From contig NZ_CANMBB010000001.1 in assembly GCF_947495965.1 (NCBI RefSeq), positions 521,728-585,727 of the forward strand: DNA of 64,000 nt, given 5' to 3'. Within the stretch, counting starts at the first letter, position 1. Each line of letters begins with the position of its first letter. Positions 25,629 to 44,707 of the stretch are shown here, one piece after another. The stretch comes from an uncultured Maribacter sp. (GTDB taxonomy: Bacteria > Bacteroidota > Bacteroidia > Flavobacteriales > Flavobacteriaceae). The notes beneath the pieces were generated by a model. That model was given only the letters and a program-made list of their open reading frames with translations, was not told where the DNA came from and ran no database searches. The position numbers and the translations under genes are program-made.

Positions 25629-25633
25629 AAAAA

Positions 25634-27582: not shown

Positions 27583-28872
27583 ATGACCAAAAAACCAACC
27601 ACAAGAAAAAGATTTAATATCCTTGCTATGATTTTTATAACTGTAGTAATAAACTATTTAGATCGCAGTAATATCTCTATAGCAGCATCAGCTCTTCAAG
27701 ATGATTTAGGTATAGACTCCATTAAAATGGGCTATGTCTTTTCTGCATTTGCATGGACCTATGCATTATTACAAATACCTGGAGGTGCAATTGCTGATAG
27801 AGTAAAATCTAGAGTACTATACACCTTTATAATGGTTTTCTGGTCTATTGCTACTTTAATTCAAGGTATGGTAAATTCTTTTACCGCATTAATTGGATTA
27901 AGAGCTAGTATTGGTTTTTTTGAAGCTCCTTCATACCCTATAAATAATTTAGTAGTTACACGTTGGTTCCCAGAAAACGAGAGAGCTACAGCAATAGGAA
28001 TTTACACTTCTGGGCAATTTTTAGGAATGGCTTTTTTATTACCAGTTTTAACTTTAATACAAGATGCATTTGGCTGGAGAGGGCTTTTTATAATCTCAGG
28101 AATTATAGGTCTTGTATGGGCTGCAATTTGGTATTTCTTTTATAGAGACCCAAAAGACCATAAATCTATTAGCCAATCAGAATTAGATTATATTCAAGAA
28201 GGTGGTGGCCTTATAGAAACAAAAAAACAGACAGAAGTTAAAGAAAAATTTAACTGGGAAGATATTAAAGAAGTATTTAGTTACCGTAAACTATGGGGAT
28301 TATACATAGGTCAATTTTGCTTAGGAGCAACTTTAATATTTTTTCTTACATGGTTCCCTACCTATTTAGTAAAGTATAGAGGATTAGATTTTTTAAAATC
28401 TGGTTTTTTAGCCTCAATACCTTACCTGGCAGCTTTTGTTGGAGTTTTACTCTCCGGATTTGTATCGGATTACCTTACCAAAAAAGGATACTCTGTAGAA
28501 ATCTCTAGAAAACTTCCAATAATTATTGGAATGCTACTTTCCATAGGTGTAATTGGAGCAAATTATACCGATGATACTTTCTTCATTATACTATTCTTAT
28601 CTATTTCCTTTTTTGGAAACGGATTAGCTAGTATAGCCTGGGTATTTATATCCTTAATAGCACCAACAAGGCTTATTGGTTTAACTGGTGGCGCATTTAA
28701 TTTTATTGGCGGTTTAGCTGGTATTGTTATACCTATTACAATAGGTTACCTTGTAAAAGACGGAGACTTTAGTCCTGCTTTATTCTTTATTGGCGGAATA
28801 GCATTATTAGGGTTTGTTTCCTACACTTTCATTGTTGGTAAAGTAGAACGTATTGTACCAAAAAACAAATAA
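27583..28872 (+). CDS. ACS-family MFS permease, DgoT-like, paralogue 2
   Basis: 429 aa, roughly 60% identical by eye to 20739-22028. Keeps GFFEAPSYP. Confidence 0.8.
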   Translation: MTKKPTTRKRFNILAMIFITVVINYLDRSNISIAASALQDDLGIDSIKMGYVFSAFAWTYALLQIPGGAIADRVKSRVLYTFIMVFWSIATLIQGMVNSFTALIGLRASIGFFEAPSYPINNLVVTRWFPENERATAIGIYTSGQFLGMAFLLPVLTLIQDAFGWRGLFIISGIIGLVWAAIWYFFYRDPKDHKSISQSELDYIQEGGGLIETKKQTEVKEKFNWEDIKEVFSYRKLWGLYIGQFCLGATLIFFLTWFPTYLVKYRGLDFLKSGFLASIPYLAAFVGVLLSGFVSDYLTKKGYSVEISRKLPIIIGMLLSIGVIGANYTDDTFFIILFLSISFFGNGLASIAWVFISLIAPTRLIGLTGGAFNFIGGLAGIVIPITIGYLVKDGDFSPALFFIGGIALLGFVSYTFIVGKVERIVPKNK

Positions 28873-28909
28873 AATATTAGTCTACTAATAATAATTTAGA
28901 ATATAACAC

Positions 28910-30067
28910 ATGAAAATCACTGATATAAAAACATATCCAATAAATGTTGGGAGTGGTAGCCAATTAGTAATTAAGGTAGAAACAAATAGTGGCATCTATG
29001 GTTGGGGAGCATCTGGCCTATCCGGAAGAGAATTTCCAGTAATTGGAGCAATAGAACACTACAAACCTTTACTTATTGGAAAAAATCCAATGCAAATTGG
29101 AGCTATATGGCAAGATTTATATAGAGGGCAGTATTTTGAAGGCGGAAGAGTTTTAACCGCAGCCATATCTGCAATAGATATAGCATTATATGATATAAAA
29201 GGAAAAGCTTTAGGTGTTCCTGTTTATGAACTCTTAGGTGGTAAACAACGTAATTTTGTAGAATGTTTTGCATCGGTACGTTTTTCTACCCTAGAAGAAC
29301 TTATTAGACTTTCTAAAGGGCTTGTTGCGGATGGATGGAATATGCTACGCCTAGCTCCTGCCGAATTTGAAGCACAAGAAAACCAAAGTGAATTTGAACC
29401 TAGAGAATCTATAGCAATAATTTCTGAATGGTTAATTGCATTAAGAAAAGAAGTAGGAACAAGAATAACTATTGGTATAGATTACCATACAAGACTAACT
29501 CAAGCAGAAACATACTCTTTTATACAAAGAATGCCTAAAGGGACTATAGATTTTATAGAAGAACCTATACGTGATGAAAATCCTGAAGCATATGAAAATC
29601 TTCGTAAAATGATAGATATTCCTTTTGCAATAGGAGAAGAGTTTTCAAGCAAATGGCAATTTATGCCTTTCATAGAAAAAAACATTACGCAATATGCAAG
29701 AATAGATGTTTGTAATGTTGGGGGTATTACCGAAGCTAAAAAGGTTGCTGCTATGGCAGAAACGCACTATATAGATTTAATGCCACACAACCCTTTAGGA
29801 CCAATATGTACCGCCGCTACGATACACTTAGCAGCATCATGTCCTAATTTTAGTTGGTTAGAAGAAGTAAATACTGGTGCTCATGTTATAACAAATGACC
29901 CAAAATTTTACCCTATGCAACATAAATTAGCAGGTCCAAGATATCCAGTTACGGACACTCCAGGCTTAGGAGTAGAATTTAACGAAGAGTATGCAAAAAC
30001 ATTAAAATTTAAACCTGTAGAAATTCCACGTCTTTATAGAAAAGATGGATCTCTCACTAATTGGTAA
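28910..30067 (+). CDS. Enolase-superfamily acid-sugar dehydratase of the DgoD/ManD branch (galactonate dehydratase-like; a DauB-like cycloisomerase role is possible)
   Basis: 385 aa. N-terminal MKITDIKTY...VETNSGIYGWG, then AIDIALYDIKGKALGVPVYELLGG. Metal-ligand contexts GIDYH, FIEEP, AIGEEF. C-terminal DGSLTNW resembles DgoD. Confidence 0.7.
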   Translation: MKITDIKTYPINVGSGSQLVIKVETNSGIYGWGASGLSGREFPVIGAIEHYKPLLIGKNPMQIGAIWQDLYRGQYFEGGRVLTAAISAIDIALYDIKGKALGVPVYELLGGKQRNFVECFASVRFSTLEELIRLSKGLVADGWNMLRLAPAEFEAQENQSEFEPRESIAIISEWLIALRKEVGTRITIGIDYHTRLTQAETYSFIQRMPKGTIDFIEEPIRDENPEAYENLRKMIDIPFAIGEEFSSKWQFMPFIEKNITQYARIDVCNVGGITEAKKVAAMAETHYIDLMPHNPLGPICTAATIHLAASCPNFSWLEEVNTGAHVITNDPKFYPMQHKLAGPRYPVTDTPGLGVEFNEEYAKTLKFKPVEIPRLYRKDGSLTNW

Positions 30068-30072
30068 ACACT

Positions 30073-31080
30073 ATGAGTTTTACAACTTTTGGAGAAATAA
30101 TGCTTAGGCTAACCCCTAACGATTACGCTGCTAAAATAAATAGCGCAAAAACTTTTGGAGTACATTTTGCTGGCTCAGAATCTAATGTAGCTAGCTCCTT
30201 AGCGTATTTAGGCAATAAAACACAGTTTGTTACTAAACTTCCAAACAATCAGCTAGGAGATGCAGCTGTTAACTCTTTAAGATTCTATGGTATAAGTACA
30301 AATAACATATTAAGAGGTGGCAATAGAATTGGAACTTATTTTATAGAAATTGGTTCCTCTATAAGACCATCTAGTGTAATATATGACAGAGAAAATTCTG
30401 CTATTGCTAGTATAAAAAACAATGAGTTTGACTGGGAAAAAGTTTTAGAAGGGCAAAAATATCTTTTTATTTCTGGAATTACACCTGCATTATCTAAATA
30501 TTGTGCTGATGAAGTAATTTCTTTAGCTAAAATTGCAAGAAAATTAAATGTTAAGGTTAGCTTTGATATGAATTACAGAAGAACTCTTTGGAGTGATGTA
30601 TCAAATGCTCGAAAAATATTTGATGCTATTTTAGAAAACACAGACATTCTGTTTGGAAATATGGGCGTATTAAATGATGTTTATGGTATGACAGGTGATG
30701 GCGCTAATAGCATAGACAAAACAGTTGATATTATTGCTAAAGCGAAGAAAGAATTCAGTCTAAAAGAACTAGCTTTTACGGTCCGTGATCATTATTCTGC
30801 TAATGAAAATGCATTATCTGGTATTTATCTAGGTGCTAATGACCCAATTGTCTCTGACACCTATAAAGTACAGATCCTAGATCGTTTTGGCACAGGAGAT
30901 GCTTTTGCTGCAGGATGTTTACACGGATTAAATAAAGATTGGAACAAAGAAAAGGTAATTGGTTTTGCAACCGCCGCTTTTGCTTTAAAACATACTATAA
31001 AAGGAGACCAACATACAAGTAACGAAGAAGAAATTAACTCCATAAGAAATGGAAATATAACTGGACACGTATTACGATGA
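30073..31080 (+). CDS. kdgK: PfkB-family 2-dehydro-3-deoxygluconokinase (KDG/KDGal kinase)
   Basis: Start taken at ATG 30073 (MSFTTFGEIMLRL); the ORF-track start at 30061 overlaps the previous gene. Contains the PfkB motif DRFGTGDAFAAG. Confidence 0.8.
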   Translation: MSFTTFGEIMLRLTPNDYAAKINSAKTFGVHFAGSESNVASSLAYLGNKTQFVTKLPNNQLGDAAVNSLRFYGISTNNILRGGNRIGTYFIEIGSSIRPSSVIYDRENSAIASIKNNEFDWEKVLEGQKYLFISGITPALSKYCADEVISLAKIARKLNVKVSFDMNYRRTLWSDVSNARKIFDAILENTDILFGNMGVLNDVYGMTGDGANSIDKTVDIIAKAKKEFSLKELAFTVRDHYSANENALSGIYLGANDPIVSDTYKVQILDRFGTGDAFAAGCLHGLNKDWNKEKVIGFATAAFALKHTIKGDQHTSNEEEINSIRNGNITGHVLR

Positions 31081-31709
31081 AAAGAGAAGAGATTTTAGAA
31101 ATAATTAAAGATAGCAAGATAGTTGTTGTTATAAGAATGAAAGAACAACAGCAAGTTGCAAAAGTTATTGATGCTTTGGTTGCGGGAGGAATTAAAGCAC
31201 TAGAGGTAACTTCTAATACCCCTGGTTACTTAGAAGAAATTTCTAAAGCTAGAGCCAAATACCCTAATACTCTTATTGGCGCTGGTACAGTTACTAATGC
31301 AAGTAAAGCTAAAGACTCTGTAAATGCCGGTGCGCAATTTTTAGTTACACCAAATACAAACATTGAAACTATTAAGGTTGCTCATGAAAACAACATCCCA
31401 GTTTTAATGGGAGCTATTACCCCATCAGAAATTAGCATGGCTGCTGAAGCTGGTGCGGATATTGTTAAAATTTTCCCTGCTGGGGCCATGGGAATTAACT
31501 ATTTTAAAGCAGTAAAAGCCCCTTTAAGTGATATTCCATTATTTGCTGTAGGTGGTATTGATGAAAATAGTGCGGCAGATTGGATTGCTGCCGGTGCTGA
31601 AGGACTTGGCATTGGTGGCGGATTAACAAAAGTTGTTAATTCCGAATCTGATTTTAATGATATTGTAACTTTATCAAAAAAATACTTATCTATTCTTAAT
31701 GAAAAATAG
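31077..31709 (+). CDS. eda: KDPG/KHG (KDPGal) aldolase
   Basis: 210 aa with an ATGA start/stop overlap with kdgK. Motifs ALEVTSNTP, GAGTV, FLVTPN, VKIFPA (Schiff-base Lys context), AVGGI. Confidence 0.85.
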   Translation: MKREEILEIIKDSKIVVVIRMKEQQQVAKVIDALVAGGIKALEVTSNTPGYLEEISKARAKYPNTLIGAGTVTNASKAKDSVNAGAQFLVTPNTNIETIKVAHENNIPVLMGAITPSEISMAAEAGADIVKIFPAGAMGINYFKAVKAPLSDIPLFAVGGIDENSAADWIAAGAEGLGIGGGLTKVVNSESDFNDIVTLSKKYLSILNEK

Positions 31710-31792: not shown

Positions 31793-33364
31793 TTACTTAA
31801 GGATTATCTTTTGCGTTTTTTTATAATCATTTCCTCTAATACCTATAAAAACATCCATCATTTCTTTTAACTTCTCAGGATTTTCTTCAGCAACATTTTT
31901 TTGTTGGCCTAAATCGTCCTTTAAATTATAAAGCATTGGTACATCAGAGTTTCCTGGCTCAATATTTACTTGATCCATAACAGCCACACCACTATATGCA
32001 GGTATCATAGCCCAATCTCCTTGTCTTAATGCTGTTCTAGAACCAGCTTCAAGAACTAGGTTATCCCTTCCCTTTTTACTTTTTCCAAGAAATGCATCTA
32101 AAAGGTTTTCACTGTCTTTTACTTTAACATCGCTACCAACTAAAGTAGCCAAAGATGAAAGTAAATCTAGTTGACAAACTAAAGCATCTGAAACACCTGG
32201 AGATATAGTCCCTTTCCAATAGGTAAAGAAAGGAACACGTGTACCCGCTTCAAACAAGCTATACTTTCCTCCTCTAAGACCGCCTGCTGGAGTATGGTCT
32301 CCTAATTTCTCTACCGCTTCATCATAATACCCATCGTTTAATACAGGGCCATTATCACTAGAAAAAACTATTATTGTATTCTCTAATACACCTTCTTCTT
32401 CTAAAGTCTTTACAAACTCTCCTACACACCAATCTGCCTCCATAATAACATCTCCACGAGCTCCTAAACCAGACTTACCTACAAATCTTGGATGCGGTGT
32501 ACGTGGCACATGTGGTTGTTGCATGGCATAGTATAAAAAGAAAGGTTCGTTTTTATGTTTTTTAACATAGTCTTGCGCACCTTTTAAAAAGTGATCTGCC
32601 ATATCTTCATCTACCCATTTAGCAGACTCTCCACCTTTCATATACCCAATTCTTGGAATTCCGTTTACAATACTATTATTATGACCATGATGCCATTTTA
32701 ATTTTAATAACTCTGGGTTATCTACACCTGTTGGCTGTCCTTCAAAATTTTCTTTATAATTAATTTCAATAGGATCATTAGGATCTAAATTAACAACATC
32801 ACCGTTTTCTATATATACAGTTGGCACTCTATCTTGCGTTGCTGCCATAATATAAGAATAGTCAAAACCAACTTCATTAGGACTTGGTTTAACTTTCTCA
32901 TTCCAGTTTACATGTCCGCTTCCTAATCCTAAATGCCATTTACCTACAACACCGGTGTAATATCCCTCTTGATTAAGCATTTTTGGGACTGTCATTTGCT
33001 CTTCACTAATAAGCAGCGGAGCCGTTCCTGGCAATATCTTAGCATTTTTATTTCTCCATGGGTAAGAACCTGTTAATAAAGCATATCTACTAGGAGTACA
33101 AGTAGCTGATGACGCATAACCGTTTGTAAAACGTAAGCCGTTATTCGCTAATTTATCCATATTTGGAGTTTTCAAAACTGTAGAACCATTGAATCCTACA
33201 TCTCCATATCCTAAATCATCCATATAAATAAAAACGATATTAGGCTTTTTCTGAGTCTCTTCTTCTATTGCAGTTTCTGCTTTCTTTTCTTTACAACTAG
33301 AAAAAAATGCAAAACAAACTGTTAGAAAAAGTAAAAAGCTACTCTTTTTAATTTTGTTTGTCAT
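31793..33364 (-). CDS. S1-family sulfatase, lipoprotein
   Basis: 523 aa with a lipobox (FFSSC). Motifs NIVFIYMDDLGYGD, CTPSRYALLTG, GKWHLG. Confidence 0.85.
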   Translation of the reverse strand: MTNKIKKSSFLLFLTVCFAFFSSCKEKKAETAIEEETQKKPNIVFIYMDDLGYGDVGFNGSTVLKTPNMDKLANNGLRFTNGYASSATCTPSRYALLTGSYPWRNKNAKILPGTAPLLISEEQMTVPKMLNQEGYYTGVVGKWHLGLGSGHVNWNEKVKPSPNEVGFDYSYIMAATQDRVPTVYIENGDVVNLDPNDPIEINYKENFEGQPTGVDNPELLKLKWHHGHNNSIVNGIPRIGYMKGGESAKWVDEDMADHFLKGAQDYVKKHKNEPFFLYYAMQQPHVPRTPHPRFVGKSGLGARGDVIMEADWCVGEFVKTLEEEGVLENTIIVFSSDNGPVLNDGYYDEAVEKLGDHTPAGGLRGGKYSLFEAGTRVPFFTYWKGTISPGVSDALVCQLDLLSSLATLVGSDVKVKDSENLLDAFLGKSKKGRDNLVLEAGSRTALRQGDWAMIPAYSGVAVMDQVNIEPGNSDVPMLYNLKDDLGQQKNVAEENPEKLKEMMDVFIGIRGNDYKKTQKIILK

Positions 33365-33475: not shown

Positions 33476-34501
33476 TTAAATAGAAACTTCTTTTCCTAAT
33501 TTACTAGACTCATATATTTTATCTTGTACTATTATGTTTTGTAAATACAAAGAAACATCCGTCTCAAAAGGTTTCGTAGAACTAAGCTGGTCTATAAAAT
33601 GTTTTTGGGTATTAAAAACACAATCTCCAGCAAAATTTTTATGCTCAAATTTATATAGGTGTTCTTTCTCCTTTTTTCCTAGTAATTGAATAGTTATTTT
33701 ACCATCTTCATATAATCTAATACTACCTTTAGTACCTTCTATTACTACTTTACCAAAAGTAAATCTAGGATTGTCTGATGTACTTTCATTATACCTATTC
33801 GCATCTAAAAAGCCAACCGCCCCATTATCAAAATCAAAATTTACCCAAGCAAAATCTTCTCCTTTTATATTAATATTTAAGGTTTTTAATTTTGCATAAA
33901 CTTTTGTAATTTCTCCTCCTAAATAACGAAAAACATCTATAAAATGGATACCTGTTTCATAGATTAATAGCTTTTTCATTTCTCTAAAATAGGGTTGTCT
34001 ATTCCTATAGGCATCATGTTGCCAACCATCTCCCATACGCATACATAAATTAATAGTGTGCAACTTCTTCCCAATAGTATTTTGTACTAATAATTTTTTA
34101 ATCTCTCTGTGCCATGGTTGAAAACGAAAATTCTCATGCACCATCATTCTTACATTAGATTCTTCTATTATTTTAGCGAGTTGTAAAGACTCCTTATAGG
34201 TTGGAGCAAGTGGTTTTTGGCAGATGATATGAATATTATTGGCTACTGCAATTTTACATATATCTAAGTGTGTATTTGGCGGTGTAATAACATCTACAAA
34301 ATCTGGGCTTTCTTGCTTAAGCATTTCTTCAAAATTATCATACGCTTTTGCAAAACCATAGGTATTACATATTGTTTGAGCTTTTTCTTTAGAAATATCG
34401 CAAACCGCAATTATTTCTACGTTTTCTAAGCGCGCCCATGCCTCATAATGAAATTGGCTAAAATACCCTGCACCAATACAAACTCCTTTATAAATTTTCA
34501 T
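33476..34501 (-). CDS. Gfo/Idh/MocA-family NAD(P) oxidoreductase, cytoplasmic
   Basis: 341 aa. Rossmann N-terminus VCIGAGYFSQFHYEAW...IIAVCD and the EKP-like motif CQKPLA. Confidence 0.75.
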   Translation of the reverse strand: MKIYKGVCIGAGYFSQFHYEAWARLENVEIIAVCDISKEKAQTICNTYGFAKAYDNFEEMLKQESPDFVDVITPPNTHLDICKIAVANNIHIICQKPLAPTYKESLQLAKIIEESNVRMMVHENFRFQPWHREIKKLLVQNTIGKKLHTINLCMRMGDGWQHDAYRNRQPYFREMKKLLIYETGIHFIDVFRYLGGEITKVYAKLKTLNINIKGEDFAWVNFDFDNGAVGFLDANRYNESTSDNPRFTFGKVVIEGTKGSIRLYEDGKITIQLLGKKEKEHLYKFEHKNFAGDCVFNTQKHFIDQLSSTKPFETDVSLYLQNIIVQDKIYESSKLGKEVSI

Positions 34502-34503
34502 TC

Positions 34504-35772
34504 TTAATATTGTGAAAAGTGTTTATGTGGTTTCATATTAAACCATAACAAAACTGCTATAATATTTAAAATTGCTCCTACAATAAAAAACAACGTTGTA
34601 CTACCTGTCCAAGATAATAAATATGGGAACAATAAAGCAGTTATAAAGGCTCCAATATTACCAGCCATATTCATTGTACCAGAAACTGTTCCCGCATGTT
34701 TTTTGCCAATATCTACACAAAATGCCCAAGATGGTGGTAAAGTCATATCTGCTCCAAAAATAGCAATGCTTAAAAACACTATAGCTCCAACAGCAGAGCT
34801 CATGTAAACACTACCAAGTAAACCTATTGCAGCTAATGTAAAACCTAAAGAAGCTGGAAATATTCTAGAGGTATCCCATTTTCCTTTTTTAAATATTTTA
34901 TCTATTAGCCAACCAGAAAACCAATTGCCAAAAGCGCCAAAAATTAAAGGAATTGCAGTGTACATACCTGCCTCCACAGTATCTAGGTTATATTCGCTTT
35001 TAATATGAGGAAACAACCAAGTAAGTGCAAAGAAAAAAGTGAAATTACTACAAAAATATTGCCCCATTGCAAGCCACATATTTTTAGATTTCATTAATGT
35101 TCCAAAATGTATTTTTTTGGTAGTAGCATTCGTGTTTTTTTCTTGTCTTTGCGATATTATAAAGTCTTTTTCTTCCTCACTAATATTTTTTAACTCTTCT
35201 GGTGTATCTCTAAAAAAAATATACCAACAAGCTGCCCAAACGCCACCTAACACTCCTAATATTATAAAAGTGTTACGCCAACCAAAATCTGTTATTGCCC
35301 AAGCAACAACGGGTACAGCAAAAGCTGCCCCCAAACGAGAGCCAGAAAAATTAATTCCTGTAACTATTCCTCTTTCTTTTAAAGGAATCCAACTATAAAT
35401 TGCTCTAGACATACCAGGGAAAGCACCAGCTTCTCCTGCACCAAATAAAAATCTAATTATTAATAATGAAATAAAACTCCAAGCAGCTCCTGTAATTGCC
35501 GTAAAAGAAGACCATAAAACAACTATAATAGTCAATATTTTTCTTGGACCAAAACGATCTACCATTATCCCAGAAGGCGTTTGAAAAAAAGCATACCCAA
35601 GTGAAAAAGAAGCTAAAACCCATCCCATTTGTTTATCGCTTAAACTAAGAGCCTCTGCAATAGGTTCTTTAGCTACAGAAATACAAATACGGTCTACATA
35701 TAATAATAAGGCTAAAAGAAAAGTGCCTACTACCATAAAATACCGCTTGGGGAAAAAGCTGTTTTTTTTCAT
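34504..35772 (-). CDS. ACS-family MFS permease (glucarate/tartrate TtuB-like anion:cation symporter)
   Basis: 422 aa with 12 TM segments. Motifs YVDRICISVA, GYAFFQTPSG, FGAGEAGAFPG. Confidence 0.75.
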   Translation of the reverse strand: MKKNSFFPKRYFMVVGTFLLALLLYVDRICISVAKEPIAEALSLSDKQMGWVLASFSLGYAFFQTPSGIMVDRFGPRKILTIIVVLWSSFTAITGAAWSFISLLIIRFLFGAGEAGAFPGMSRAIYSWIPLKERGIVTGINFSGSRLGAAFAVPVVAWAITDFGWRNTFIILGVLGGVWAACWYIFFRDTPEELKNISEEEKDFIISQRQEKNTNATTKKIHFGTLMKSKNMWLAMGQYFCSNFTFFFALTWLFPHIKSEYNLDTVEAGMYTAIPLIFGAFGNWFSGWLIDKIFKKGKWDTSRIFPASLGFTLAAIGLLGSVYMSSAVGAIVFLSIAIFGADMTLPPSWAFCVDIGKKHAGTVSGTMNMAGNIGAFITALLFPYLLSWTGSTTLFFIVGAILNIIAVLLWFNMKPHKHFSQY

Positions 35773-37154
35773 TTTAAAAGTTTTAATAATTCATATAATG
35801 CTGTTTCATCTCCTACATTTCCTGGAAAAATAATATATGGCATTTTAGGAAATTTACTCTCCTCCCCTAATTGCCAAATAGGAACGCCTTTTATTGCTTG
35901 CCCCATTACAAGAGCTCTTTTAACTTTCAATGCTTTTGTAGCAACATCACTAGAGGTAATTCCTCCTTTTGCAATTATATATTTAGGAGTACATGACAAA
36001 TTTTTAACTATACGAATAAGCCCATTAGATACTAAGTTTACAATCTCTAGACTTTTAGACTCTGACTCCCCTTTAATAATAGTTCTGCTAGTAAAAAGAA
36101 CAACGTCTTCTCCTTTTTCTAAATTACGATTTACTCTAGAAATTAATTCTTCTATTTCCTTACTAAAAACAGCAGTATTTAATACATTGGTAACATCTAA
36201 CTCTAAAAAAATTGCATTTGTATTTTCTTTTAAATAATTTAATTGCAATGTCGTTTTTGGAACATAAGACCCTATTACTAACAAAGAACCTGAGGTAGAA
36301 TTTTCTCCAAATATTTCTTTTTTAGTTAAACAATCTTTTGGAAGTATCCCAGTAATAGCATTCACAAAAGATGCAGCTGTTCTATATAGTATAGTTTCTT
36401 TACTTTGTAAACATGCCAAGGCTAGTTTCTCTAAATCTGCATAAGATGTTGCATTGGCAACTATATGTGATATTGCTGGACTTATAAGAACACTTTGTAA
36501 ATTTTCCTCTGAATTTTCTCTTAATTCTTTAATAGATAAACTCCCAATATTTTTAGGATCTACTTTAGCATTTGTTTTTTCTATTATCCAATCTATAAGA
36601 TTAGAAGATAAATAGCCAAAAGTATTATCCTTTGCAAATGGTGTTTTTGCAGCTGGAATAAACTCCTTACCTTCTTTTACGTAATGAATATTTTTATAGG
36701 TATACCTACCTCCCTCAAAAAAAGCAGGCGCTAATACATGCTTAGCTTTTGGTATTTGTAACCCTTCTGCAAGAGCATTAACTTCATTAGGATAATGCCC
36801 CCTTAAAGTAGAATCTCCCCTACTAATTAAAACTAATTCTTTTTTATGTTTTTTAGATAACTTATTAAGTCTAGAACCAATTAATGCAGCTAATAGATTT
36901 GCATCTTGTATTTGCAAACTTCTAGAATTAGTTAAAATAAAAAAAACAGGGCTATTAAGTATTTCTTTTTCAAGAACCTTATCTGTCCATTCTGTAATTA
37001 CTGGTACATTATATACTGTTTGGGTTCCAGTAGGATCATCATCTAAAACAACAATAGTTTTAGGGCTTTTTTTTAGTTCTTTACGTATCGCCTCTACAGA
37101 GCCTTGTAACAGTTCTCCCTCTTCAATAGATTTTAAAATTTCTTCTTTTAGCAT
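35769..37154 (-). CDS. Four-carbon acid-sugar kinase family protein (DUF1537; OtnK/DtnK/DenK family)
   Basis: 461 aa. N-terminal VVLDDDPTGTQTV, then NSRSL, GDSTLRGH, and C-terminal IAKGGITSSDVA...IFPGNVGD. Confidence 0.75.
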   Translation of the reverse strand: MLKEEILKSIEEGELLQGSVEAIRKELKKSPKTIVVLDDDPTGTQTVYNVPVITEWTDKVLEKEILNSPVFFILTNSRSLQIQDANLLAALIGSRLNKLSKKHKKELVLISRGDSTLRGHYPNEVNALAEGLQIPKAKHVLAPAFFEGGRYTYKNIHYVKEGKEFIPAAKTPFAKDNTFGYLSSNLIDWIIEKTNAKVDPKNIGSLSIKELRENSEENLQSVLISPAISHIVANATSYADLEKLALACLQSKETILYRTAASFVNAITGILPKDCLTKKEIFGENSTSGSLLVIGSYVPKTTLQLNYLKENTNAIFLELDVTNVLNTAVFSKEIEELISRVNRNLEKGEDVVLFTSRTIIKGESESKSLEIVNLVSNGLIRIVKNLSCTPKYIIAKGGITSSDVATKALKVKRALVMGQAIKGVPIWQLGEESKFPKMPYIIFPGNVGDETALYELLKLLK

Positions 37155-37157
37155 TAT

Positions 37158-37808
37158 TTATTCCTCTATTGCTATTACTCTTGCAGGAGCACCATCTCCA
37201 CCTTCTACCTTTATAGGAAGTGCAACCAATGTAAATTTTGACGAAGAAAGAGCTTCTAAATTAGTAAGCCCTTCAATAATTATAATATCATTCTTCATTA
37301 AAATATTATGTATTTCGGTTACTTCCTCAATGTTATTAACATCTGCAACAGATGGTGGCTCTACACCTATAATATTTACTTTTTTTTCTCCAAGCCATAA
37401 AGCCAATTCTTTACTTATTCTAGGCAATGCATTACGATACTCTTGTGATTCTATTTTTTTACTCCACCCTGTTTGTAATAAAATACTATCTCCAGGGCTA
37501 ATTTTATCTGCAATAGTCTCCAGATGTTTTATAGTAATTAATTCTTTGGGTTTTATTGCTGTTACGTTTACCTTCCAAGCACTAGAAATAAGCCTGTTAA
37601 CAGGTATAGTATCTATAGTCTGGGTATTTACACCAAAATGAATGGGGGCATCCATATGTGTACCACTATGAGAGTATAAATTTAGAGTTGTTGCGTTCCA
37701 ACCATCTTTAGAAATTGTACGAGCAGGTTCTATAGAAACCCCACTCATAGAATTTTTTATGGGTAGGGTTATATCTATAATTTTCTTGTCGTTCATTCTC
37801 TTACGCAA
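37158..37808 (-). CDS. Cyclase-family (kynurenine-formamidase-like) metal-dependent hydrolase
   Basis: 216 aa (alternative start at 37796). Contains the signature HSGTHMDAPIHF; also GVEPPSVAD and EIHNIL. Confidence 0.7.
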   Translation of the reverse strand: MRKRMNDKKIIDITLPIKNSMSGVSIEPARTISKDGWNATTLNLYSHSGTHMDAPIHFGVNTQTIDTIPVNRLISSAWKVNVTAIKPKELITIKHLETIADKISPGDSILLQTGWSKKIESQEYRNALPRISKELALWLGEKKVNIIGVEPPSVADVNNIEEVTEIHNILMKNDIIIIEGLTNLEALSSSKFTLVALPIKVEGGDGAPARVIAIEE

Positions 37809-38880
37809 CTACTAATTCTGTAGTCTCTATATAATTTACAACACTATTTGCTACATCAGAGGTAGATGCACTTCCTTTAAGGTCTTTGGTTAAATTTCCT
37901 TTAGAAGTAGTGTACGCAATCCCTTTCATAATATCTTTAGCAGCTTCTATTTCTCCTAAATGCTCCAACATTATAGCTGCAGACCAAATTTGACCTATTG
38001 GATTTGCTATATTTTGCCCAGCAATATCTGGAGCAGAACCATGTATAGGCTCAAACATAGATGGAAAATCCTTTTCAGGATTAATATTTCCACTTCCTCC
38101 AAGACCAAGACTACCCATAATAGCTCCTCCTAAATCGGATAATATGTCTCCAAAAAGATTTGTAGTTAAGATTACATCAAAAACTTCTGGTCTAAGCACA
38201 AAACTTGCAGATGCATTATCTATATACATTGTATTGTATTCTACATCTGTGTACTGTTCTGCAACCTCTGCAATAACCCTATCCCAATACGCAAGACTAT
38301 GTATTAAGGTATTAGATTTTGTTACATTAGTTACTTTACTTCTTCTTTTTCTTGCTAATTTAAAAGAGTAGTGCGCAATACGTTCTATTCCAAATCTAGT
38401 AAACACACTAGTATCTGTAGCAACTCCACCAGCTTCTTCTGCATGCATTATTTGTCCATTTTGAACAAATTCTCCTTCATTGTTTTCACGAACCACAACA
38501 AAATCTATATCCTCTTGTGTTTTATCTCTTAACGGACTATCTATTCCTGGAAATAATTTTACAGGTCTATAGTTTACATACTGCTTAAGCTTTCCCCTTA
38601 CTTTAAAAGTATAATCTCTAGCAGGCAAAGTATCATCTACTTCGGGTAAACCAACAGCTCCAAAATAAATTGCATCAAATTTTTTCATTTGTTCTATACC
38701 ATCTTCTGGCATAAATTCTCCATATTTTAAATAATGTCCTGCTCCCCAAGACAATTCATTTAAATCTAAACTAAAACCATGCTTTTTTGCAACAGCTTTT
38801 AATACAGAAACACCTGCTGGTACAATTTCTGCTCCAATTCCGTCTCCGTTTACAACGGCTATTTTATACGCTTTTCCCAT
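37801..38880 (-). CDS. Tartrate dehydrogenase/decarboxylase-like member of the isocitrate/isopropylmalate dehydrogenase family
   Basis: Start taken at MGKAYKIAVVNGDGIG (38880); the ORF track uses a TTG at 38904. Colinear with remembered Pseudomonas TDH: FDAIYFGAVG, VVVRENNEGE, VTKSN, NLFGDILSD, FPSMFEPIHGSAPDIAGQNIANP, MLEHLGE. Confidence 0.8.
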   Translation of the reverse strand: MGKAYKIAVVNGDGIGAEIVPAGVSVLKAVAKKHGFSLDLNELSWGAGHYLKYGEFMPEDGIEQMKKFDAIYFGAVGLPEVDDTLPARDYTFKVRGKLKQYVNYRPVKLFPGIDSPLRDKTQEDIDFVVVRENNEGEFVQNGQIMHAEEAGGVATDTSVFTRFGIERIAHYSFKLARKRRSKVTNVTKSNTLIHSLAYWDRVIAEVAEQYTDVEYNTMYIDNASASFVLRPEVFDVILTTNLFGDILSDLGGAIMGSLGLGGSGNINPEKDFPSMFEPIHGSAPDIAGQNIANPIGQIWSAAIMLEHLGEIEAAKDIMKGIAYTTSKGNLTKDLKGSASTSDVANSVVNYIETTELVVA

Positions 38881-38894
38881 TTTAAGTGAATTAT

Positions 38895-38914
38895 TTTTGC
38901 GCAATTTTGCGCAA
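38895..38914. promoter_or_regulatory. Perfect tandem direct repeat 2 x TTTTGCGCAA, each containing the palindrome TTGCGCAA; candidate operator
   Basis: 38895-38904 is identical to 38905-38914. It lies 15 nt upstream of the minus-strand start codon at 38880. Confidence 0.45.
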
Positions 38915-38955
38915 CTACAAAATGTTTATTTAATAATTTAAATGCTAATTAAATT

Positions 38956-38963
38956 CAAAATTA
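38956..38963 (-). promoter_or_regulatory. Candidate -7 box (TAATTTTG on the minus strand) for the divergent five-gene operon
   Basis: The plus strand reads CAAAATTA; its reverse complement TAATTTTG matches TAnnTTTG. Confidence 0.35.
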
Positions 38964-38975
38964 TATAATTTTAAC

Positions 38976-38983
38976 TACATTTG
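38976..38983 (+). promoter_or_regulatory. Candidate -7 box (TACATTTG) for the LacI-family gene
   Basis: Matches TAnnTTTG, 49 nt upstream of the ATG at 39032. Confidence 0.35.
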
Positions 38984-39001
38984 ATTGAATATATACTATT
39001 A

Positions 39002-39023
39002 TTTGTGCAAAAAATTGCACAAA
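39002..39023. promoter_or_regulatory. 22-bp palindrome TTTGTGCAA-AAAA-TTGCACAAA; candidate LacI-family operator (autoregulation)
   Basis: Perfect 9-bp arms that share the TTG(C/T)GCAA core with the tandem repeat at 38895-38914. It ends 8 nt before the LacI start codon. Confidence 0.5.
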
Positions 39024-39031
39024 ATGTAATT

Positions 39032-40072
39032 ATGACAAAAAATATAAGAGATAAAGAAACTCCTACTTTAAAGGATATTGCAGAAACGCTAAATATTTCT
39101 ATATCTACTGCTTCTAGAGCTTTAAAAAACAACCCTAGGATTAGTAGAAAAACACAAGAAATGGTAAAAAATACCGCGAAAAGAATGGGGTATTTGTCTA
39201 TAGATATGCTTAGTGAAGAAAAAAAGAAAGCAACTAACCTTATTGGAGTAATAGTTCCTAAAATTAGTTATCACTTATACGCCATGGCAATAAGTGGTAT
39301 AGAGCATATTGCAGAAAAAAACGGCATGCACATTATAGTATGCCAATCTAATGAATCTTATGAAAGAGAAAAAAGCTTAGTAAAAGAGCTTATACAAGCT
39401 GGGGTAAATGGCATAATAGCTTCTTTGGCTAGTGAAACTAAAGATTTTTCACATTTTCTAGAGTTAAAAAAAATAGGCATTCCATTAGTTTTTTTTAATA
39501 GAGAGTGTAATGATGTAATTACGCATAAGGTAACCATAGACAATAAAAGAGCTGCTTATGAAGCTGTTATGCATTTAATTTCTGTTGGATGCAAAAAAAT
39601 AGCATATATAGGAGGGCCAGAGGTGCTACAAATAAATAAAGAACGGGCTCAGGGTTTTAAAGATGCTTTAGCAGATAATAATATATTATTAGATGACAAT
39701 CATATAATTTATAGCAGGTTTGATAGAGAAAGTACATTAACTGCTGCAAGGTCTTTATTGTACTCTCCTGATTACCCAGACGGAATTTTAACCTTTAGCG
39801 ATCAAATAGCAATTAGTGTAATGTTAGCTGCAAAAGAAAGAGGAATTGCTATACCTGAAAAATTATCTCTAATTGGTTTTAACAACGAGCCAATAGATGA
39901 GCTTTTAGAACCCTCTTTAACCAGTATAGATCAACCTGGTTATAGAATGGGAGAAGAATCTGCTCAACTTCTTTTAAAACAGCTTACTAACTTTAATAAT
40001 ATATACGAAAAAAGAATCCTAAAATCATTTTTAGTAGTACGTAATTCTACAAATAAAAATAGAAAATCGTAA
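39032..40072 (+). CDS. LacI-family transcriptional regulator
   Basis: Start taken at MTKNIRDKETPTLKDIAETLNISISTASRALKN (HTH_LacI); the ORF-track TTG start at 38981 is rejected. The C-terminal periplasmic-binding-protein-like fold contains IGFNN. Confidence 0.85.
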   Translation: MTKNIRDKETPTLKDIAETLNISISTASRALKNNPRISRKTQEMVKNTAKRMGYLSIDMLSEEKKKATNLIGVIVPKISYHLYAMAISGIEHIAEKNGMHIIVCQSNESYEREKSLVKELIQAGVNGIIASLASETKDFSHFLELKKIGIPLVFFNRECNDVITHKVTIDNKRAAYEAVMHLISVGCKKIAYIGGPEVLQINKERAQGFKDALADNNILLDDNHIIYSRFDRESTLTAARSLLYSPDYPDGILTFSDQIAISVMLAAKERGIAIPEKLSLIGFNNEPIDELLEPSLTSIDQPGYRMGEESAQLLLKQLTNFNNIYEKRILKSFLVVRNSTNKNRKS

Positions 40073-40125: not shown

Positions 40126-43035
40126 ATGAAACATTTAAATTATAAACTAAAAATAGCATTTACTCTAGCTATATTTTTATTTGGAATTAATGCAAACGCA
40201 CAAAATCAAAAAATTTCGGAAGAAAAAAATGGTATTTTACTAATTGAAGCCGAAAACTTTAAAAATCAAACTAAAACAGAGGTTCGTAAATGGCATATTA
40301 TTACAGACCAAAATAATCTAGAAACCAAAACAGCAAGCAATAACAGTTATATTAAATTATTACCAGATACTAGAACCAACCACCAAGACAAACTTATTCC
40401 TAATGTTAATTTTAGTAATGAGCCTGGAAAAATGGCAATTCTACATTACAAAGTAAAAATTAATACTCCAGGGCGTTATTACGTATGGGCAAGTGCTTAT
40501 AGCTCTAATTCTGAAGATAACGGTATACATGTTGGCTTAAATGGAGAATGGCCAGAAAGCGGACAAAGAATGCAATGGTGCGATGGCAAAAACTCATGGT
40601 TTTGGTCAAGTAAACAAAGAACTTTAGAAGTACACTGTGGTGTTCCTGGTTTAATTTATTTAGATATTGACAAAGCAGGAGAATATGACATTCAATTTAG
40701 TATGCGAGAAGATGGTTTTACAATGGACCAGTGGTTAATGACTACAGACAAACATTTTTCTTTTGACAAACTTACAAAAGACAAAAAAACCATCTCTTTA
40801 ATGGATGCTGTTAAGCAAAAATACCCTGATTATGTTACTATAAAAGCTACCGATTTTGAAATTCAAAACAATACTTTTTATGTAGATAAAAATTGGCTAG
40901 CAATTAATCCAGATAAAAATGAAACCGCTAAAGCAACTTATAAATATACAGGTGCTTCTGGTTTGTTTGATATAGTCGTGCATGGCGTTGGAGAAAACGA
41001 CGGAAGATCTTCATTTACACTAACTGTAAATAAATTTCCGCAAGGAACATTTAGACCAGAATTAAGCACAGATGCTTTTGAAGAAGGGCCAGACTATGGC
41101 AAAACATTTTTAGATGTACAATTAAACACAAACGACATTATTACCATTGATGGAAAAATTGGAAGCAGAGATCAAAAAGAATTTAGTAGAGGCCGTTGGA
41201 GCGGAATAAACATCACCCCTATTGGAAAAGGAGATAAATTGCTCAAAAGTTTAAATGATGGAAATGAAAATACCACTGTTAAAATAGATGGAGAATTAAA
41301 AAAGTGGCATAAGGTTACACTTACTTTTGATGGGCCACTTACCTCCGAAACAAAAAAGAATAACCCTTTTATGAATTTTCGTTTTAATACTACGTTTACA
41401 CATACAAAAACTGGTAAAAAATATTTAATTCCAGGTTATTTTGCTGCAGATGGCTATGCAGGAGAATCTTCTGCTACAGATGGGAACAAATGGCGTGTGC
41501 ATTTTGCTCCCGATGAAATAGGAGAATGGACATATTCTGTTGATTTTAGAAAAGGTAATTGGGTTGCCGTTAGCGATAAAATAAACTCTGGTTTAAGTGC
41601 TGGTTATATGGATGGAGCTACGGGTAAATTCACTATTGAAAACACCGATAAAAAAGGAAAAGATTTTAGAGCAAAAGGTAGACTCCAATATGTTGGCGAA
41701 CGCTATTTAAAATTTGCAGAAACAGGAGAATACTTTTTAAAACAAGGGCCAGATGCTCCAGAAAACTTTTTATCTTATATAGATTTTGATGGTACTTTTC
41801 ATAATGATGGCCATAAAGACAATTTAGTAAAGACTTGGGAAGCACATGAAAAAGATTGGAAAGAAGGAGATTTAACATGGAAAAATGGAAAAGGAAAAGC
41901 AATTGTAGGAGCTCTAAATTATTTAGCCTCTAAAGATTTAAATTCTGTTTCCTTTTTAACTAATAATATTGCTGGTGATGATCAAAATGTATTCCCATAT
42001 ATAGATTACGATACCTATGACCGTATTGATGTTTCTAAAATGGACCAATGGGAGTCTCTTTTTGCATATGCTCAAAAATTAGGCTTATTTCTTCATTTTA
42101 AAACTTTAGAAGTAGAAAACCAAGGCTTACTAGATAATGGTGGCGTAGGCGCTAACAGTAAACTATATTATAGAGAATTAATGGCTAGGTTTGGCCACCA
42201 CTTAGCTTTGAACTGGAATTTATGTGAAGAAAATGGAGAATGGATAAAAGACCACCCAACACCACCGCAAAGTACAGAAGAAAGATTAGCTATGACACAT
42301 TATTTTAAAAACCACGATCCTTACCATCACCATTTAGTAATTCATAATGGCATAAAGTATGATGATTTATTAGGTCCTGATAGTGGATTAACTGGCCCTT
42401 CTATACAAACCCACAAAGCAGATTTTAGCACCATTCATAAAGAGGTATTACACTTATTAAAAATATCGAAAGAAGCAGGTTTTCAATGGGCAGCTGCAGT
42501 AGACGAACCTGGTGATGCGCAACATTCTTTATTACCAGATGATGAAAACCCAGATCATGACAATGCTAGAAGAAATGCGTTATGGGGTACTTTTATGGCC
42601 GGTGGCTGGGGTAACGAATGGTACTTTGGTTACAAACATCCAAACTCTGATATTACATGCCAAGACTACCGTTCTCGAGATTTATTTTGGGATCAGGCTG
42701 TACACGCTATTAATTTCTTTAAGAATAATACCGTTCCTTTCTGGGAAATGCAAAATAACAATAGCTTAGTAGGTAATCCGGAGAATAAAAATACGGTATA
42801 CTGCCTTGCTAAAGAAAATGAAACTTATGTTGTATACTTAAACTCTAAGCCAACCTCTTCTTTAGATTTAACAAACGCTACTGGCGAATATAAAGTTCTT
42901 TGGTATAACCCAAAACAAGGTGGTACTTTAAAAAAATCTAAAGTAAAAAAAGTTAAAGGAGGAGCCGTAGTAGAATTAGGAAAATCTCCTGACAAAAAAC
43001 AATTAGATTGGGTTATTCTTGTTACAAAAGAATAA
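40126..43035 (+). CDS. Secreted multidomain putative glycoside hydrolase: two N-terminal CBM-like domains, DUF5060-like Ig domain and a clan GH-A-like (beta/alpha)8 domain
   Basis: 969 aa with a signal peptide. LLIEAENF...MDQWLMT is a CBM-like module. GELKKWHKVTLTFDGP...WRVHFAPDEIGEWTYSV is DUF5060-like. LALNWNLCEENGEW resembles the NE(P) acid/base strand of clan GH-A. Confidence 0.55.
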   Translation: MKHLNYKLKIAFTLAIFLFGINANAQNQKISEEKNGILLIEAENFKNQTKTEVRKWHIITDQNNLETKTASNNSYIKLLPDTRTNHQDKLIPNVNFSNEPGKMAILHYKVKINTPGRYYVWASAYSSNSEDNGIHVGLNGEWPESGQRMQWCDGKNSWFWSSKQRTLEVHCGVPGLIYLDIDKAGEYDIQFSMREDGFTMDQWLMTTDKHFSFDKLTKDKKTISLMDAVKQKYPDYVTIKATDFEIQNNTFYVDKNWLAINPDKNETAKATYKYTGASGLFDIVVHGVGENDGRSSFTLTVNKFPQGTFRPELSTDAFEEGPDYGKTFLDVQLNTNDIITIDGKIGSRDQKEFSRGRWSGINITPIGKGDKLLKSLNDGNENTTVKIDGELKKWHKVTLTFDGPLTSETKKNNPFMNFRFNTTFTHTKTGKKYLIPGYFAADGYAGESSATDGNKWRVHFAPDEIGEWTYSVDFRKGNWVAVSDKINSGLSAGYMDGATGKFTIENTDKKGKDFRAKGRLQYVGERYLKFAETGEYFLKQGPDAPENFLSYIDFDGTFHNDGHKDNLVKTWEAHEKDWKEGDLTWKNGKGKAIVGALNYLASKDLNSVSFLTNNIAGDDQNVFPYIDYDTYDRIDVSKMDQWESLFAYAQKLGLFLHFKTLEVENQGLLDNGGVGANSKLYYRELMARFGHHLALNWNLCEENGEWIKDHPTPPQSTEERLAMTHYFKNHDPYHHHLVIHNGIKYDDLLGPDSGLTGPSIQTHKADFSTIHKEVLHLLKISKEAGFQWAAAVDEPGDAQHSLLPDDENPDHDNARRNALWGTFMAGGWGNEWYFGYKHPNSDITCQDYRSRDLFWDQAVHAINFFKNNTVPFWEMQNNNSLVGNPENKNTVYCLAKENETYVVYLNSKPTSSLDLTNATGEYKVLWYNPKQGGTLKKSKVKKVKGGAVVELGKSPDKKQLDWVILVTKE

Positions 43036-44705: not shown

Positions 44706-44707
44706 GC

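Follow-up and report, generated by a model that had tools for sequence, protein, structure and literature searches.

The subject of this study is a group of five genes in a 64,000-nucleotide stretch of DNA (here called the window) from an uncultured Maribacter sp. (contig NZ_CANMBB010000001.1, positions 521,728 to 585,727). They form one tightly packed operon, which we interpret as an uncharacterised oxidative acid-sugar catabolic operon, probably for a small unusual sugar. The products are an NAD dehydrogenase resembling isopropylmalate dehydrogenase (IPMDH) and tartrate dehydrogenase (TDH), a cyclase-family hydrolase, a DUF1537 kinase, a permease of the major facilitator superfamily (MFS) and a Gfo/Idh/MocA dehydrogenase (Gfo). 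The operon is the marine-flavobacterial form of a module that is widespread across genera and phyla, with an invariant core of the TDH-like enzyme, the cyclase-family hydrolase, an MFS permease of the anion:cation symporter (ACS) type and the Gfo.

Five minus-strand open reading frames (ORFs) lie between 33476 and 38904 in the ORF listing of the window. The genes are given below in their order of transcription, followed by the two genes that lead away from the operon on the opposite strand.

37801-38880, minus strand: TDH-like NAD dehydrogenase of the IPMDH/tartrate dehydrogenase type, 'Phe clade' (PF00180)
37158-37796, minus strand: cyclase-family metal-dependent hydrolase (PF04199)
35769-37154, minus strand: acid-sugar kinase of family DUF1537, divergent in sequence (PF07005, SBD_N, and PF17042, NBD_C)
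34504-35772, minus strand: MFS permease of the anion:cation symporter (D-galactonate transporter) type (PF07690)
33476-34501, minus strand: Gfo/Idh/MocA NAD(P) dehydrogenase, cytoplasmic (PF01408, PF22725 and PF02894)
39032-40072, plus strand: LacI-family regulator, divergently oriented (PF00356 and Peripla_BP_1/3/4)
40126-43035, plus strand: secreted DUF5060 protein of 969 aa, behind LacI (Pfam)

With ATG starts the successive junctions are +4, +3, -4 (an ATGA overlap) and +2 nt. In the ORF listing three genes (LacI, TDH-like and cyclase) open at an upstream TTG (38981 for LacI), and if the cyclase started at TTG 37808 instead of ATG 37796 its junction with the TDH-like gene would become an 8-nt overlap. 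The conserved N-termini of the proteins and the predicted -7 boxes described below favour the ATGs at 39032, 38880 and 37796 as the likely starts. An earlier note on this DNA had described the five genes as a single translationally coupled transcript, divergent from a LacI-family gene, and had assigned their products to families; the junctions and the Pfam domains, both of LacI and of all five operon proteins, agree with it.

This gene arrangement is far beyond chance, since the order TDH-like, cyclase, kinase, MFS, Gfo is kept in every flavobacterial locus examined and the TDH-like gene adjoins the cyclase gene in 74 of 80 metagenome loci. The block is present in two Maribacter genomes (90-95% identity of the kinases). 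In Zobellia galactanivorans (CAZ97932-CAZ97936) it is accompanied by LacI and a full-length DUF5060 gene, in Polaribacter it lies with LacI amid housekeeping genes, and in Aquimarina it lies with LacI between transposases. Aggregatimonas has it without LacI, with sulfatases on one side and an ulvan lyase/rhaM/GH88 region on the other, and a metagenome-assembled genome (MAG) of the Balneolaceae has it with a GntR regulator and the MFS gene placed apart. The 80 metagenome loci were retrieved by scanning with aligned cyclases of the module, and their genes were counted with tblastn panels; the TDH-like gene lies directly upstream of the cyclase in all but six, which are contig ends. LacI adjoins the block in Zobellia, Polaribacter, Aquimarina and ~11 of the metagenome loci, and many of the loci derive from sediment, wetland and soil. 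The conservation of the neighbourhood that the earlier note had looked to is thus found in five further groups of genomes and metagenomes, and the cyclase and Gfo, which it had regarded as misfits, both belong to the invariant core together with the TDH-like gene.

The position after the cyclase gene varies. A DUF1537 kinase gene occupies it in 35 of the 80 metagenome loci and a gene for a TAL_FSA protein of ~350 aa in 26; in 11 others MFS or Gfo follows the cyclase directly, with no fifth gene, and the contig ends there in the remaining eight. The ~350-aa protein scores 87 bits on PF00923 (TAL_FSA), aligns with the transaldolase Lys motif IKIPAT, and resembles ordinary transaldolases (7e-10) more than it does sulfofructose transaldolase (1.5e-3). 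TDH-like proteins from loci of the kinase type are interleaved with those from loci of the transaldolase type, at identities of up to 92%. Since TDH-like proteins with 92% identity stand beside either partner, the fifth gene has been swapped recently on an unchanged core; and since near-identical TDH-like copies occur in kinase-free loci, the TDH-like substrate is expected to be unphosphorylated, with the kinase or transaldolase downstream. Judged from these sequences, the DUF1537 kinase most likely acts after the TDH-like enzyme and not before it.

One metagenome contig (L020:1169-7070) carries the genes sulfatase, GntR, TDH-like, cyclase and Gfo, followed by a DAGK_cat kinase that replaces the DUF1537 kinase. 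The variable step is filled here in a third way, unrelated to the other two.

The TDH-like protein matches PF00180 at 318 bits and is 48% identical to Pseudomonas putida TDH (3FLK) and 46% to Escherichia coli DmlA. It scores 462.8 on TIGR02089 (tartrate dehydrogenase/decarboxylase), under the cutoff of 470.4, and 412.8 on NF006048 against a cutoff of 501. R95, R105, R131, K188, D221, D245 and D249 (three Arg, the Lys and three metal-binding Asp) are kept in the alignment. The position of the family's catalytic Tyr, in contrast, is occupied by F138 in the motif RENNEGEF, and all module copies read RENxEGEF where P. putida TDH, E. coli DmlA and Mycobacterium tuberculosis IPMDH have RE(N/G)TEG(E/P)Y. 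Phe is found in 49 of 49 module sequences and Tyr in 26 of 26 canonical ones; among the 150 best representatives of the family at 50% identity, 117 have Tyr and nine have Phe. The nearest representative (56% identity) has Phe and is itself located in a module, and divergent TDH-like paralogues (36-38% identity) that adjoin cyclases have Phe as well; the gene contexts of two distant Phe-variant IPMDH proteins, P0287 and P0333, are uninformative. Further clade-specific residues are T91/F92 in place of L/L in the loop before R95, and Y219 and N222 around D221, and the substrate loop is changed from hydrophobic to polar. Once decarboxylation has occurred, the Tyr of IPMDH/TDH-family enzymes serves to protonate the enol. 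Its absence suggests that the reaction halts after the oxidation or follows a different course, and the standard beta-hydroxyacid oxidative decarboxylation that the earlier note had assumed does not sit well with Phe throughout the clade. By its residues, the TDH-like clade does not appear to be one of standard oxidative decarboxylases.

The best solved relative of the Gfo is 5UHW, ahead of the others by 18 orders of magnitude in E-value (phmmer, 1.8e-39), and a structural model of the Gfo (predicted local distance difference test score, pLDDT, 93) matches it in Foldseek with E 5e-36 and a template modelling (TM) score of 0.89. The entry is titled 'oxidoreductase from Agrobacterium radiobacter with NAD+ and magnesium'. 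A Gfo 93% identical to 5UHW is encoded in an unannotated D-apiose cluster on a replicon of Rhizobium lusitanum (NZ_CP050307; 1115-13628 of the extracted locus), with the gene order RuBisCO-like protein, DUF1537, PGDH_C-type dehydrogenase, ABC transporter, Gfo, 628-aa protein and Dak1/Dak2; Dak1 and Dak2 genes are also found in the Draconibacterium cluster described below. The 628-aa protein is the D-apionate lactonase ApnL (NCBIfam 1041 against a cutoff of 750), and the kinase there is OiaK-like. From its position beside ApnL, the R. lusitanum Gfo is most probably an apiose 1-dehydrogenase, and we propose that the window Gfo may likewise be an aldose 1-dehydrogenase. An ApnO-like role for the Gfo, with 5UHW taken as a D-apionate oxidoisomerase, was considered and dropped: according to a published description ApnO is PDB 5T57, of the PGDH_C/F420_oxidored type, and the 5UHW-type Gfo stands beside ApnL.

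The cyclase-family protein matches PF04199 at 99 bits and scores 79.5 on the arylformamidase KynB (TIGR03035), whose cutoff is 223. The metal motif HxGTHxDxPxH is present as HSGTHMDAPIH, with its three His and the Asp invariant across module copies. PF04199 includes a carboxylesterase and a dienelactone hydrolase, which provide a precedent for ester and lactone hydrolysis (PMC5341072), and we propose that the protein would serve as a lactonase. The permease scores 273.6 on TIGR00893, under the cutoff of 395, and has module-wide relatives of 45-82% identity.

The kinase has both DUF1537 domains at full length (PF07005, 158.5 bits; PF17042, 125.1 bits). The sole NCBIfam match is the D-threonate kinase DtnK, at 79 against a cutoff of 450; there is no sequence match in the PDB at E<=1e-3 and no BLAST similarity to the OiaK-like protein of R. 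lusitanum. Known DUF1537 substrates are C4 and branched-C5 keto and hydroxy acids, according to PMC12994016 and PMC12540250. The nearest relatives outside the module (~40% identical) are clostridial, in clusters with RpiR, F_bP_aldolase and an NAD_binding_2/11 dehydrogenase; the kinase of these clusters has no NCBIfam match at all. In four clostridial loci (L004, L005, L006 and L008) such clusters, of RpiR, class IIb aldolase, GarR-scoring dehydrogenase and DUF1537, adjoin acetaldehyde dehydrogenase/HMGL-like (DmpFG-type) genes. The clostridial clusters may belong to the three-step pathway for threonate or to a glycerate route resembling gar. A class II aldolase beside the module in the Balneolaceae MAG was considered as a 2-OtnC and rejected, since NCBIfam identifies it as FbaA, a housekeeping enzyme (score 488.7, cutoff 297).

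Besides a signal peptide, the DUF5060 protein comprises two GH115_C-like beta-sandwich domains, the DUF5060 domain, a core and a Collagen_bind_2 domain. The isolated core has no Pfam match, all database relatives are named only 'DUF5060 domain-containing protein', and the literature searched contains nothing relevant on the function of DUF5060. The structural model has a mean pLDDT of 71, with the catalytic part low. Its best Foldseek matches are a putative glycoside hydrolase (GH; 4N0R), the GH5 mannanase ManDH5 and the GH140 apiosidases 5MSY and 8T9W, the latter two at E 8e-9 to 1e-7 in a region where the model is weak. A short member of the family also matches PF13204 ('Apiosidase') weakly (E 7e-4, 19.7 bits against a cutoff of 26.5). 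On this modelling the core is a putative (beta/alpha)8 catalytic domain with a GH140/GH5-like fold.

We propose the following oxidative acid-sugar route, from aldose through lactone, acid sugar and keto-acid sugar to phosphorylation and dihydroxyacetone phosphate (DHAP), and give this general mechanism about an even chance of being correct. A small sugar, probably released extracellularly by the DUF5060 enzyme, would be imported by the MFS permease. The Gfo would oxidise its anomeric carbon to give a lactone, which the cyclase-family hydrolase would open to the acid sugar. The TDH-like enzyme would then oxidise a hydroxyl of this unphosphorylated, tartrate-like acid without the Tyr-dependent protonation of an enol, and would yield a keto-acid sugar whose end is of the hydroxyacetone type, as in 3-oxo-tetronate and 3-oxo-isoapionate. 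In the window the DUF1537 kinase would phosphorylate the keto-acid sugar and its carbon would end as DHAP and CO2; in the sister modules the transaldolase-family enzyme would take the same ketone with no use of ATP. We infer that kinase and transaldolase are alternative ways of handling a compound with a 1-hydroxy-2-keto end, which is a feature of the classic DUF1537 substrates 3-oxo-tetronate and 3-oxo-isoapionate.

The most likely substrate class is a tetrose/tetronate or an apiose-like branched furanose. A C4 acid sugar is the leading, albeit unproven, candidate: the dehydrogenase stays close to TDH, no extra enzymes are needed to bring the carbon to DHAP or fructose 6-phosphate plus CO2, and erythrulose-type genes occur in Draconibacterium. 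The apiose-like branched furanose is the main alternative on account of hints from the Gfo, DUF5060 and DUF1537 proteins. Several points weigh against the route as proposed. All three carboxylate-binding Arg of the TDH family are conserved, a pattern that would suit a dicarboxylate, and the anion-symporter type of the permease suggests that the imported sugar is acidic and not neutral. The module is without a decarboxylase of the OtnC or 2-OtnC type. The window Gfo is only 27-30% identical (tblastn) to the 5UHW-type enzyme, whose own apiose role is drawn from context, and the kinase is ~40% identical to merely putative 2-oxo-tetronate kinases, beside which the dehydrogenase scores as a tartronate-semialdehyde reductase. 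A DUF5060 sequence profile found no solved relative in the PDB, and the catalytic domain of the model is of low confidence. To our knowledge, there is no tetrose-containing glycan.

A more far-reaching reading, which we regard as possible but unlikely, is that the module and DUF5060 make up a complete and previously unknown route for an unrecognised component of aquatic, often sulfated glycans, for which a branched or acidic furanose resembling apiose or aceric acid could be envisaged. The Tyr-less TDH-like clade would have a new chemistry, either stopping at a 3-oxo acid or enediol or carrying out an ApnO-like oxidoisomerisation, and its product would be captured by a new DUF1537 specificity or by a decarboxylative dihydroxyacetone transfer of the transaldolase-family enzyme. 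DUF5060 would then be a new GH family.

A substrate-specific form of the proposed route is a non-orthologous oxidative pathway for D-apiose or an apiose-like furanose, in which the DUF5060 protein is apiosidase-like, the Gfo corresponds to ApsD, and the cyclase, TDH-like enzyme and DUF1537 kinase stand in for ApnL, ApnO and OiaK. The closest solved relative of the Gfo comes from an apiose cluster, the DUF5060 family bears the resemblances to apiosidases given above, and OiaK belongs to DUF1537; D-apionate is by established chemistry a (2R)-2-hydroxy acid, as preferred by IPMDH-type enzymes, and the sediment, wetland and soil from which many module loci come are places where plant pectins occur. 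However, tblastn with the R. lusitanum apiose-cluster proteins against the window and the annotated genome loci L011, L012 and L015-L018 finds no homologue of ApnL, ApnO, OiaK or the RuBisCO-like protein (RLP), and the Gfo is the one match; the kinase, as noted, shows no BLAST similarity to the OiaK-like protein. Apiose is moreover a neutral sugar and the permease of anion type, erythrulose phosphate products would need isomerases that are absent from the module, the sulfatase neighbours do not suit apiogalacturonan or rhamnogalacturonan II (RG-II), and the GH140 similarity is weak and drawn from a low-confidence model. We consider an apiose pathway unlikely.

The order of steps could also be reversed, such that the DUF1537 protein, like DtnK or DenK, phosphorylates D-threonate or D-erythronate, the TDH-like enzyme replaces PdxA2 in the oxidative decarboxylation of 4-phospho-tetronate to DHAP, and the Gfo and cyclase feed in a tetrose or its lactone. 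The earlier note had favoured this substitution for PdxA2. The four enzymes would make a self-contained set, PdxA and IPMDH-type enzymes are generally known to share a class of chemistry, the conserved Arg residues could bind a phosphate, and D-threonate kinase is the only NCBIfam match of the kinase, albeit with a score (79 bits) far under the DtnK cutoff of 450. We hold phosphorylation before oxidation to be improbable: loci in which the transaldolase-family gene or nothing takes the place of the kinase include TDH-like proteins with 92% identity to those found beside a kinase, and the Tyr required after decarboxylation is Phe throughout the clade.

We are still more doubtful of a route for tartrate or D-malate resembling that of the ttu genes. 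Here a TtuB-like MFS would import tartrate, or a C4 uronic acid that the Gfo and cyclase convert to tartrate, the TDH-like enzyme would yield glycerate or hydroxypyruvate, and the DUF1537 protein would be a glycerate kinase analogous to TtuD. The TDH-like protein almost reaches the TDH equivalog cutoff (462.8 against 470.4) and retains all three Arg together with the Lys and Asp residues; the permease is of the anion-symporter type, a dispensable kinase is what would be expected if housekeeping glycerate kinases substitute for it, and a GarR-scoring reductase adjoins the clostridial kinase relatives. With Phe in place of Tyr, on the other hand, the enzyme lacks the residue on which the decarboxylating reactions of TDH depend, the substrate loop has gone from hydrophobic to polar, and a transaldolase-family alternative to the kinase has no role with glycerate, hydroxypyruvate or tartrate. 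Judged by the Pfam domains of the operon and flanking genes, no TtuA, TtuD or TtuE homologue is present, and we know of no natural source of a free C4 uronic acid.

The substrate might instead be an aldose whose tail is anionic, for example sulfoquinovose or a 6-sulfated hexose. The Gfo, cyclase and TDH-like enzyme would then mimic glucose-6-phosphate dehydrogenase, lactonase and 6-phosphogluconate dehydrogenase, and the ketose would be split by kinase plus aldolase or by transaldolase. This reading would account for the anion type of the permease, for the conservation of the Arg residues and for sulfatases as recurrent neighbours, and its alternation of kinase and transaldolase mirrors the known sulfo-Embden-Meyerhof-Parnas and sulfo-transaldolase routes. 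It is very improbable, given that clustering of the neighbour genes found no recurrent genes for a sulfonated or sulfated C2/C3 remnant or for sulfite export, that the TAL_FSA protein is closer to ordinary transaldolases than to sulfofructose transaldolase, that the likeness of the Gfo to NAD-dependent sulfoquinovosidases is only generic, and that we know of no DUF1537 kinase with a neutral ketose as substrate.

The start codons of the TDH-like and LacI genes are separated by 151 bp, in which a pattern search for Bacteroidota-type -7 boxes (TAnnTTTG) finds one on each strand within 38956..38983. The sites of interest in this interval are as follows.

38963->38956, minus strand: -7 box TAATTTTG (pattern search)
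38976-38983, plus strand: -7 box TACATTTG (pattern search)
38897-38914: operator-like tandem TTGCGCAA-tt-TTGCGCAA, placed after the predicted -7 box and before the TDH-like start codon
39002-39023: operator-like palindrome TTTGTGCAA-aaaa-TTGCACAAA, following the other -7 box and just upstream of the lacI start

By the known Bacteroidota consensus, the TAnnTTTG boxes are predicted promoters. A sigma-70 promoter scan gave results below shuffle expectation, its model not being meaningful for Bacteroidota. The octamer TTGYGCAA has four copies in the two intergenic sites and elsewhere in the window only two isolated ones, at 10363 and 49046; it marks no other promoter within the window, and no larger regulon can be defined from it. 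Tandem TTGYGCAA pairs upstream of the TDH-like gene and on the LacI side are also present in Zobellia and Polaribacter, making three genera with that of the window. LacI has both a helix-turn-helix (HTH) domain and a periplasmic-binding-fold domain, and its own intergenic region contains the palindromic site. LacI would thus be expected to repress both the five-gene operon and its own transcript, the latter continuing into the DUF5060 gene (40126-43035), such that the DUF5060 gene would be co-regulated with the operon.

A DUF5060 gene is present in 40 of the 80 metagenome loci, in 33 directly upstream on the same strand, and a sulfatase-like gene is present in 11. The sulfatase gene downstream of the window operon (31793-33364) follows the block in the two Maribacter genomes only. 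The link to the flanking genes suggested in the earlier note holds for the DUF5060 gene behind LacI and more loosely for the sulfatases. It does not extend to the SusC/D pairs; in Polaribacter and Aquimarina the block lies outside any polysaccharide utilisation locus (PUL).

The Polaribacter locus has beside LacI a stand-alone lipoprotein of 221 aa (L012:6391-7056), which shares 58% identity with the N-terminal domain of the DUF5060 protein in the window and corresponds to only its first ~210 residues, the GH115_C-like domain. The lipoprotein is what remains after decay or else a binding domain of use in its own right. In the Verrucomicrobiota, the DUF5060 context contains no module. A Draconibacterium locus (L016, 317-13036) encodes in order an enolase-superfamily protein, GntR, MFS, AP_endonuc_2, RpiB, Dak1, Dak2, AP_endonuc_2 and two DUF5060 proteins (606 and 1011 aa). 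The two AP_endonuc_2 genes are of isomerase type, and genes for a TDH-like enzyme, a cyclase and a Gfo are all missing. Its MFS, beside the two DUF5060 genes, is 49.5% identical to the module MFS, and its RpiB best matches RpiB and DerI. This cluster looks like an alternative, erythrulose-type C4 use of the same imported compound, as far as its gene content can indicate.

In the window the operon is flanked by two PUL-like regions. One (43137-58554, minus strand) contains a sulfatase, a DUF4955/pectate-lyase-fold protein, a GH88-like protein, a sulfatase, SusD, SusC, FecR, an extracytoplasmic function (ECF) sigma factor, a protein similar to carbohydrate-binding module family 9 (CBM9) and a sulfatase; the other (18637-27391, plus strand) contains a hybrid two-component regulator, MFS, SusC and SusD. 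A segment of DUF4955, sulfatase, (DUF1080) and DUF5060 genes is found in Zobellia also. A second acid-sugar unit, directly next to the operon at 27583-31709 (plus strand), has overlapping junctions and encodes an ACS-type MFS, an enolase-superfamily dehydratase/cycloisomerase, a PfkB 2-keto-3-deoxy-acid kinase and an aldolase of the type acting on 2-keto-3-deoxy-6-phosphogluconate; the MFS is 32% identical to the module MFS and has a 62% paralogue at 20739-22028 (plus strand). This unit resembles the lower pathways of the DauB/C/D or 2-keto-3-deoxygluconate type. A DUF7133/DUF6797 protein occurs near the module in three unrelated contexts, at 10816-18429 of the window and in the loci L003 (7958-12387) and L087 (6248-8485). 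The gene in L087 is inserted between the cyclase and MFS genes, and the copies of the window and L003 carry a cytochrome c or cupredoxin domain and are accompanied by FG-GAP/ASPIC proteins. These proteins could be periplasmic sugar oxidases that acidify the imported compound, and the anion type of the permease would then be accounted for.

The module abounds among algal-glycan degraders of the marine Flavobacteriaceae, of which the model organism Z. galactanivorans is one, and in sediment and soil bacteria of other phyla. Solving it would provide functions for a Tyr-less isocitrate/isopropylmalate dehydrogenase clade and for three subfamilies, a new one of DUF1537 kinases, one of cyclase-family hydrolases and a divergent one of transaldolases, would probably allow DUF5060 proteins to be assigned as a glycoside hydrolase family, and would reveal which sugar of aquatic polysaccharides is harvested. 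The natural swap between kinase and transaldolase is a ready handle on the pathway intermediate. There are good prospects of new enzyme specificities, and we consider the operon a strong experimental lead.

None of the ttu, otn/dtn, three-step threonate and apiose pathways fits the operon. In the literature searched, nothing relevant was found for the gene combination, for Zobellia with TDH or for the kinase name, in keeping with the statement of the earlier note that no described pathway accounts for the gene set. Its further observation that the canonical partners of DUF1537 kinases are missing also stands. No PdxA2, OtnC, OtnI, LtnD or DenD partner was found by Pfam in the operon, in its flanks from 10.8 to 58.6 kb (27583-28872 excepted) or in five flavobacterial loci, PdxA2 and OtnI having been sought by domain only, without a query sequence; tblastn with 2-OtnC-like and LtnD-like queries was negative; and genes for OtnC, 2-OtnC, OiaK, ApnO, ApnL and RLP-type proteins are absent in and near the block by tblastn and Pfam of the flanks.

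With the ttu operon of Agrobacterium vitis the module shares an IPMDH-family TDH-like dehydrogenase and an ACS-type MFS. It differs in that the catalytic Tyr is Phe and the loop is remodelled, and in that cyclase, Gfo and DUF1537 genes are added. The TtuD glycerate kinase, the TtuE pyruvate kinase and a LysR regulator are absent as judged from the Pfam content of the operon and flanks, with no Ttu sequences compared, and the regulator is a LacI.

L-Threonate as well as D-erythronate is degraded by a four-step pathway (LtnD/DenD, OtnI, 3-OtnK and 3-OtnC; Zhang 2016) and a three-step one (LtnD, 2-OtnK, 2-OtnC; Guo 2024), as outlined in PMC12994016 and PMC12540250. As in the module, a DUF1537 kinase acts in these on a small keto-acid sugar supplied by an NAD dehydrogenase, with DHAP and CO2 as the plausible end, and the domain set of the three-step pathway matches the clusters of the nearest kinase relatives outside the module (~40% identity). 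Unlike them, the module has no NAD_binding_2/11 beta-hydroxyacid dehydrogenase, OtnI, or decarboxylase of the Aldolase_II or F_bP_aldolase type; its dehydrogenase is the Phe-bearing TDH-like enzyme, the Gfo and cyclase are obligatory, and the kinase is exchangeable with a transaldolase-family protein.

The oxidative D-apiose pathway, which proceeds through ApsD, ApnL, ApnO, OiaK and RLP (Carter et al. 2018; as cited in PMC12994016 and PMC11747546), has the same logic of an aldose 1-dehydrogenase, a lactonase, an NAD-dependent oxidation of the acid and a DUF1537 kinase. The lactonase, acid oxidoreductase and kinase of the module are, however, non-homologous to those of the apiose pathway or unrecognisably distant from them, there is no RuBisCO-like protein, and the transporter is an MFS and not an ABC system.

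A sugar 1-dehydrogenase, a lactonase and an acid-sugar dehydrogenase also act in turn in the Bacteroides vulgatus L-galactose pathway and in the oxidative branch of the pentose-phosphate pathway, both of which deliver a ketose-type product to central metabolism. All three enzymes belong to families other than those of the module, and the parallel is one of logic only.

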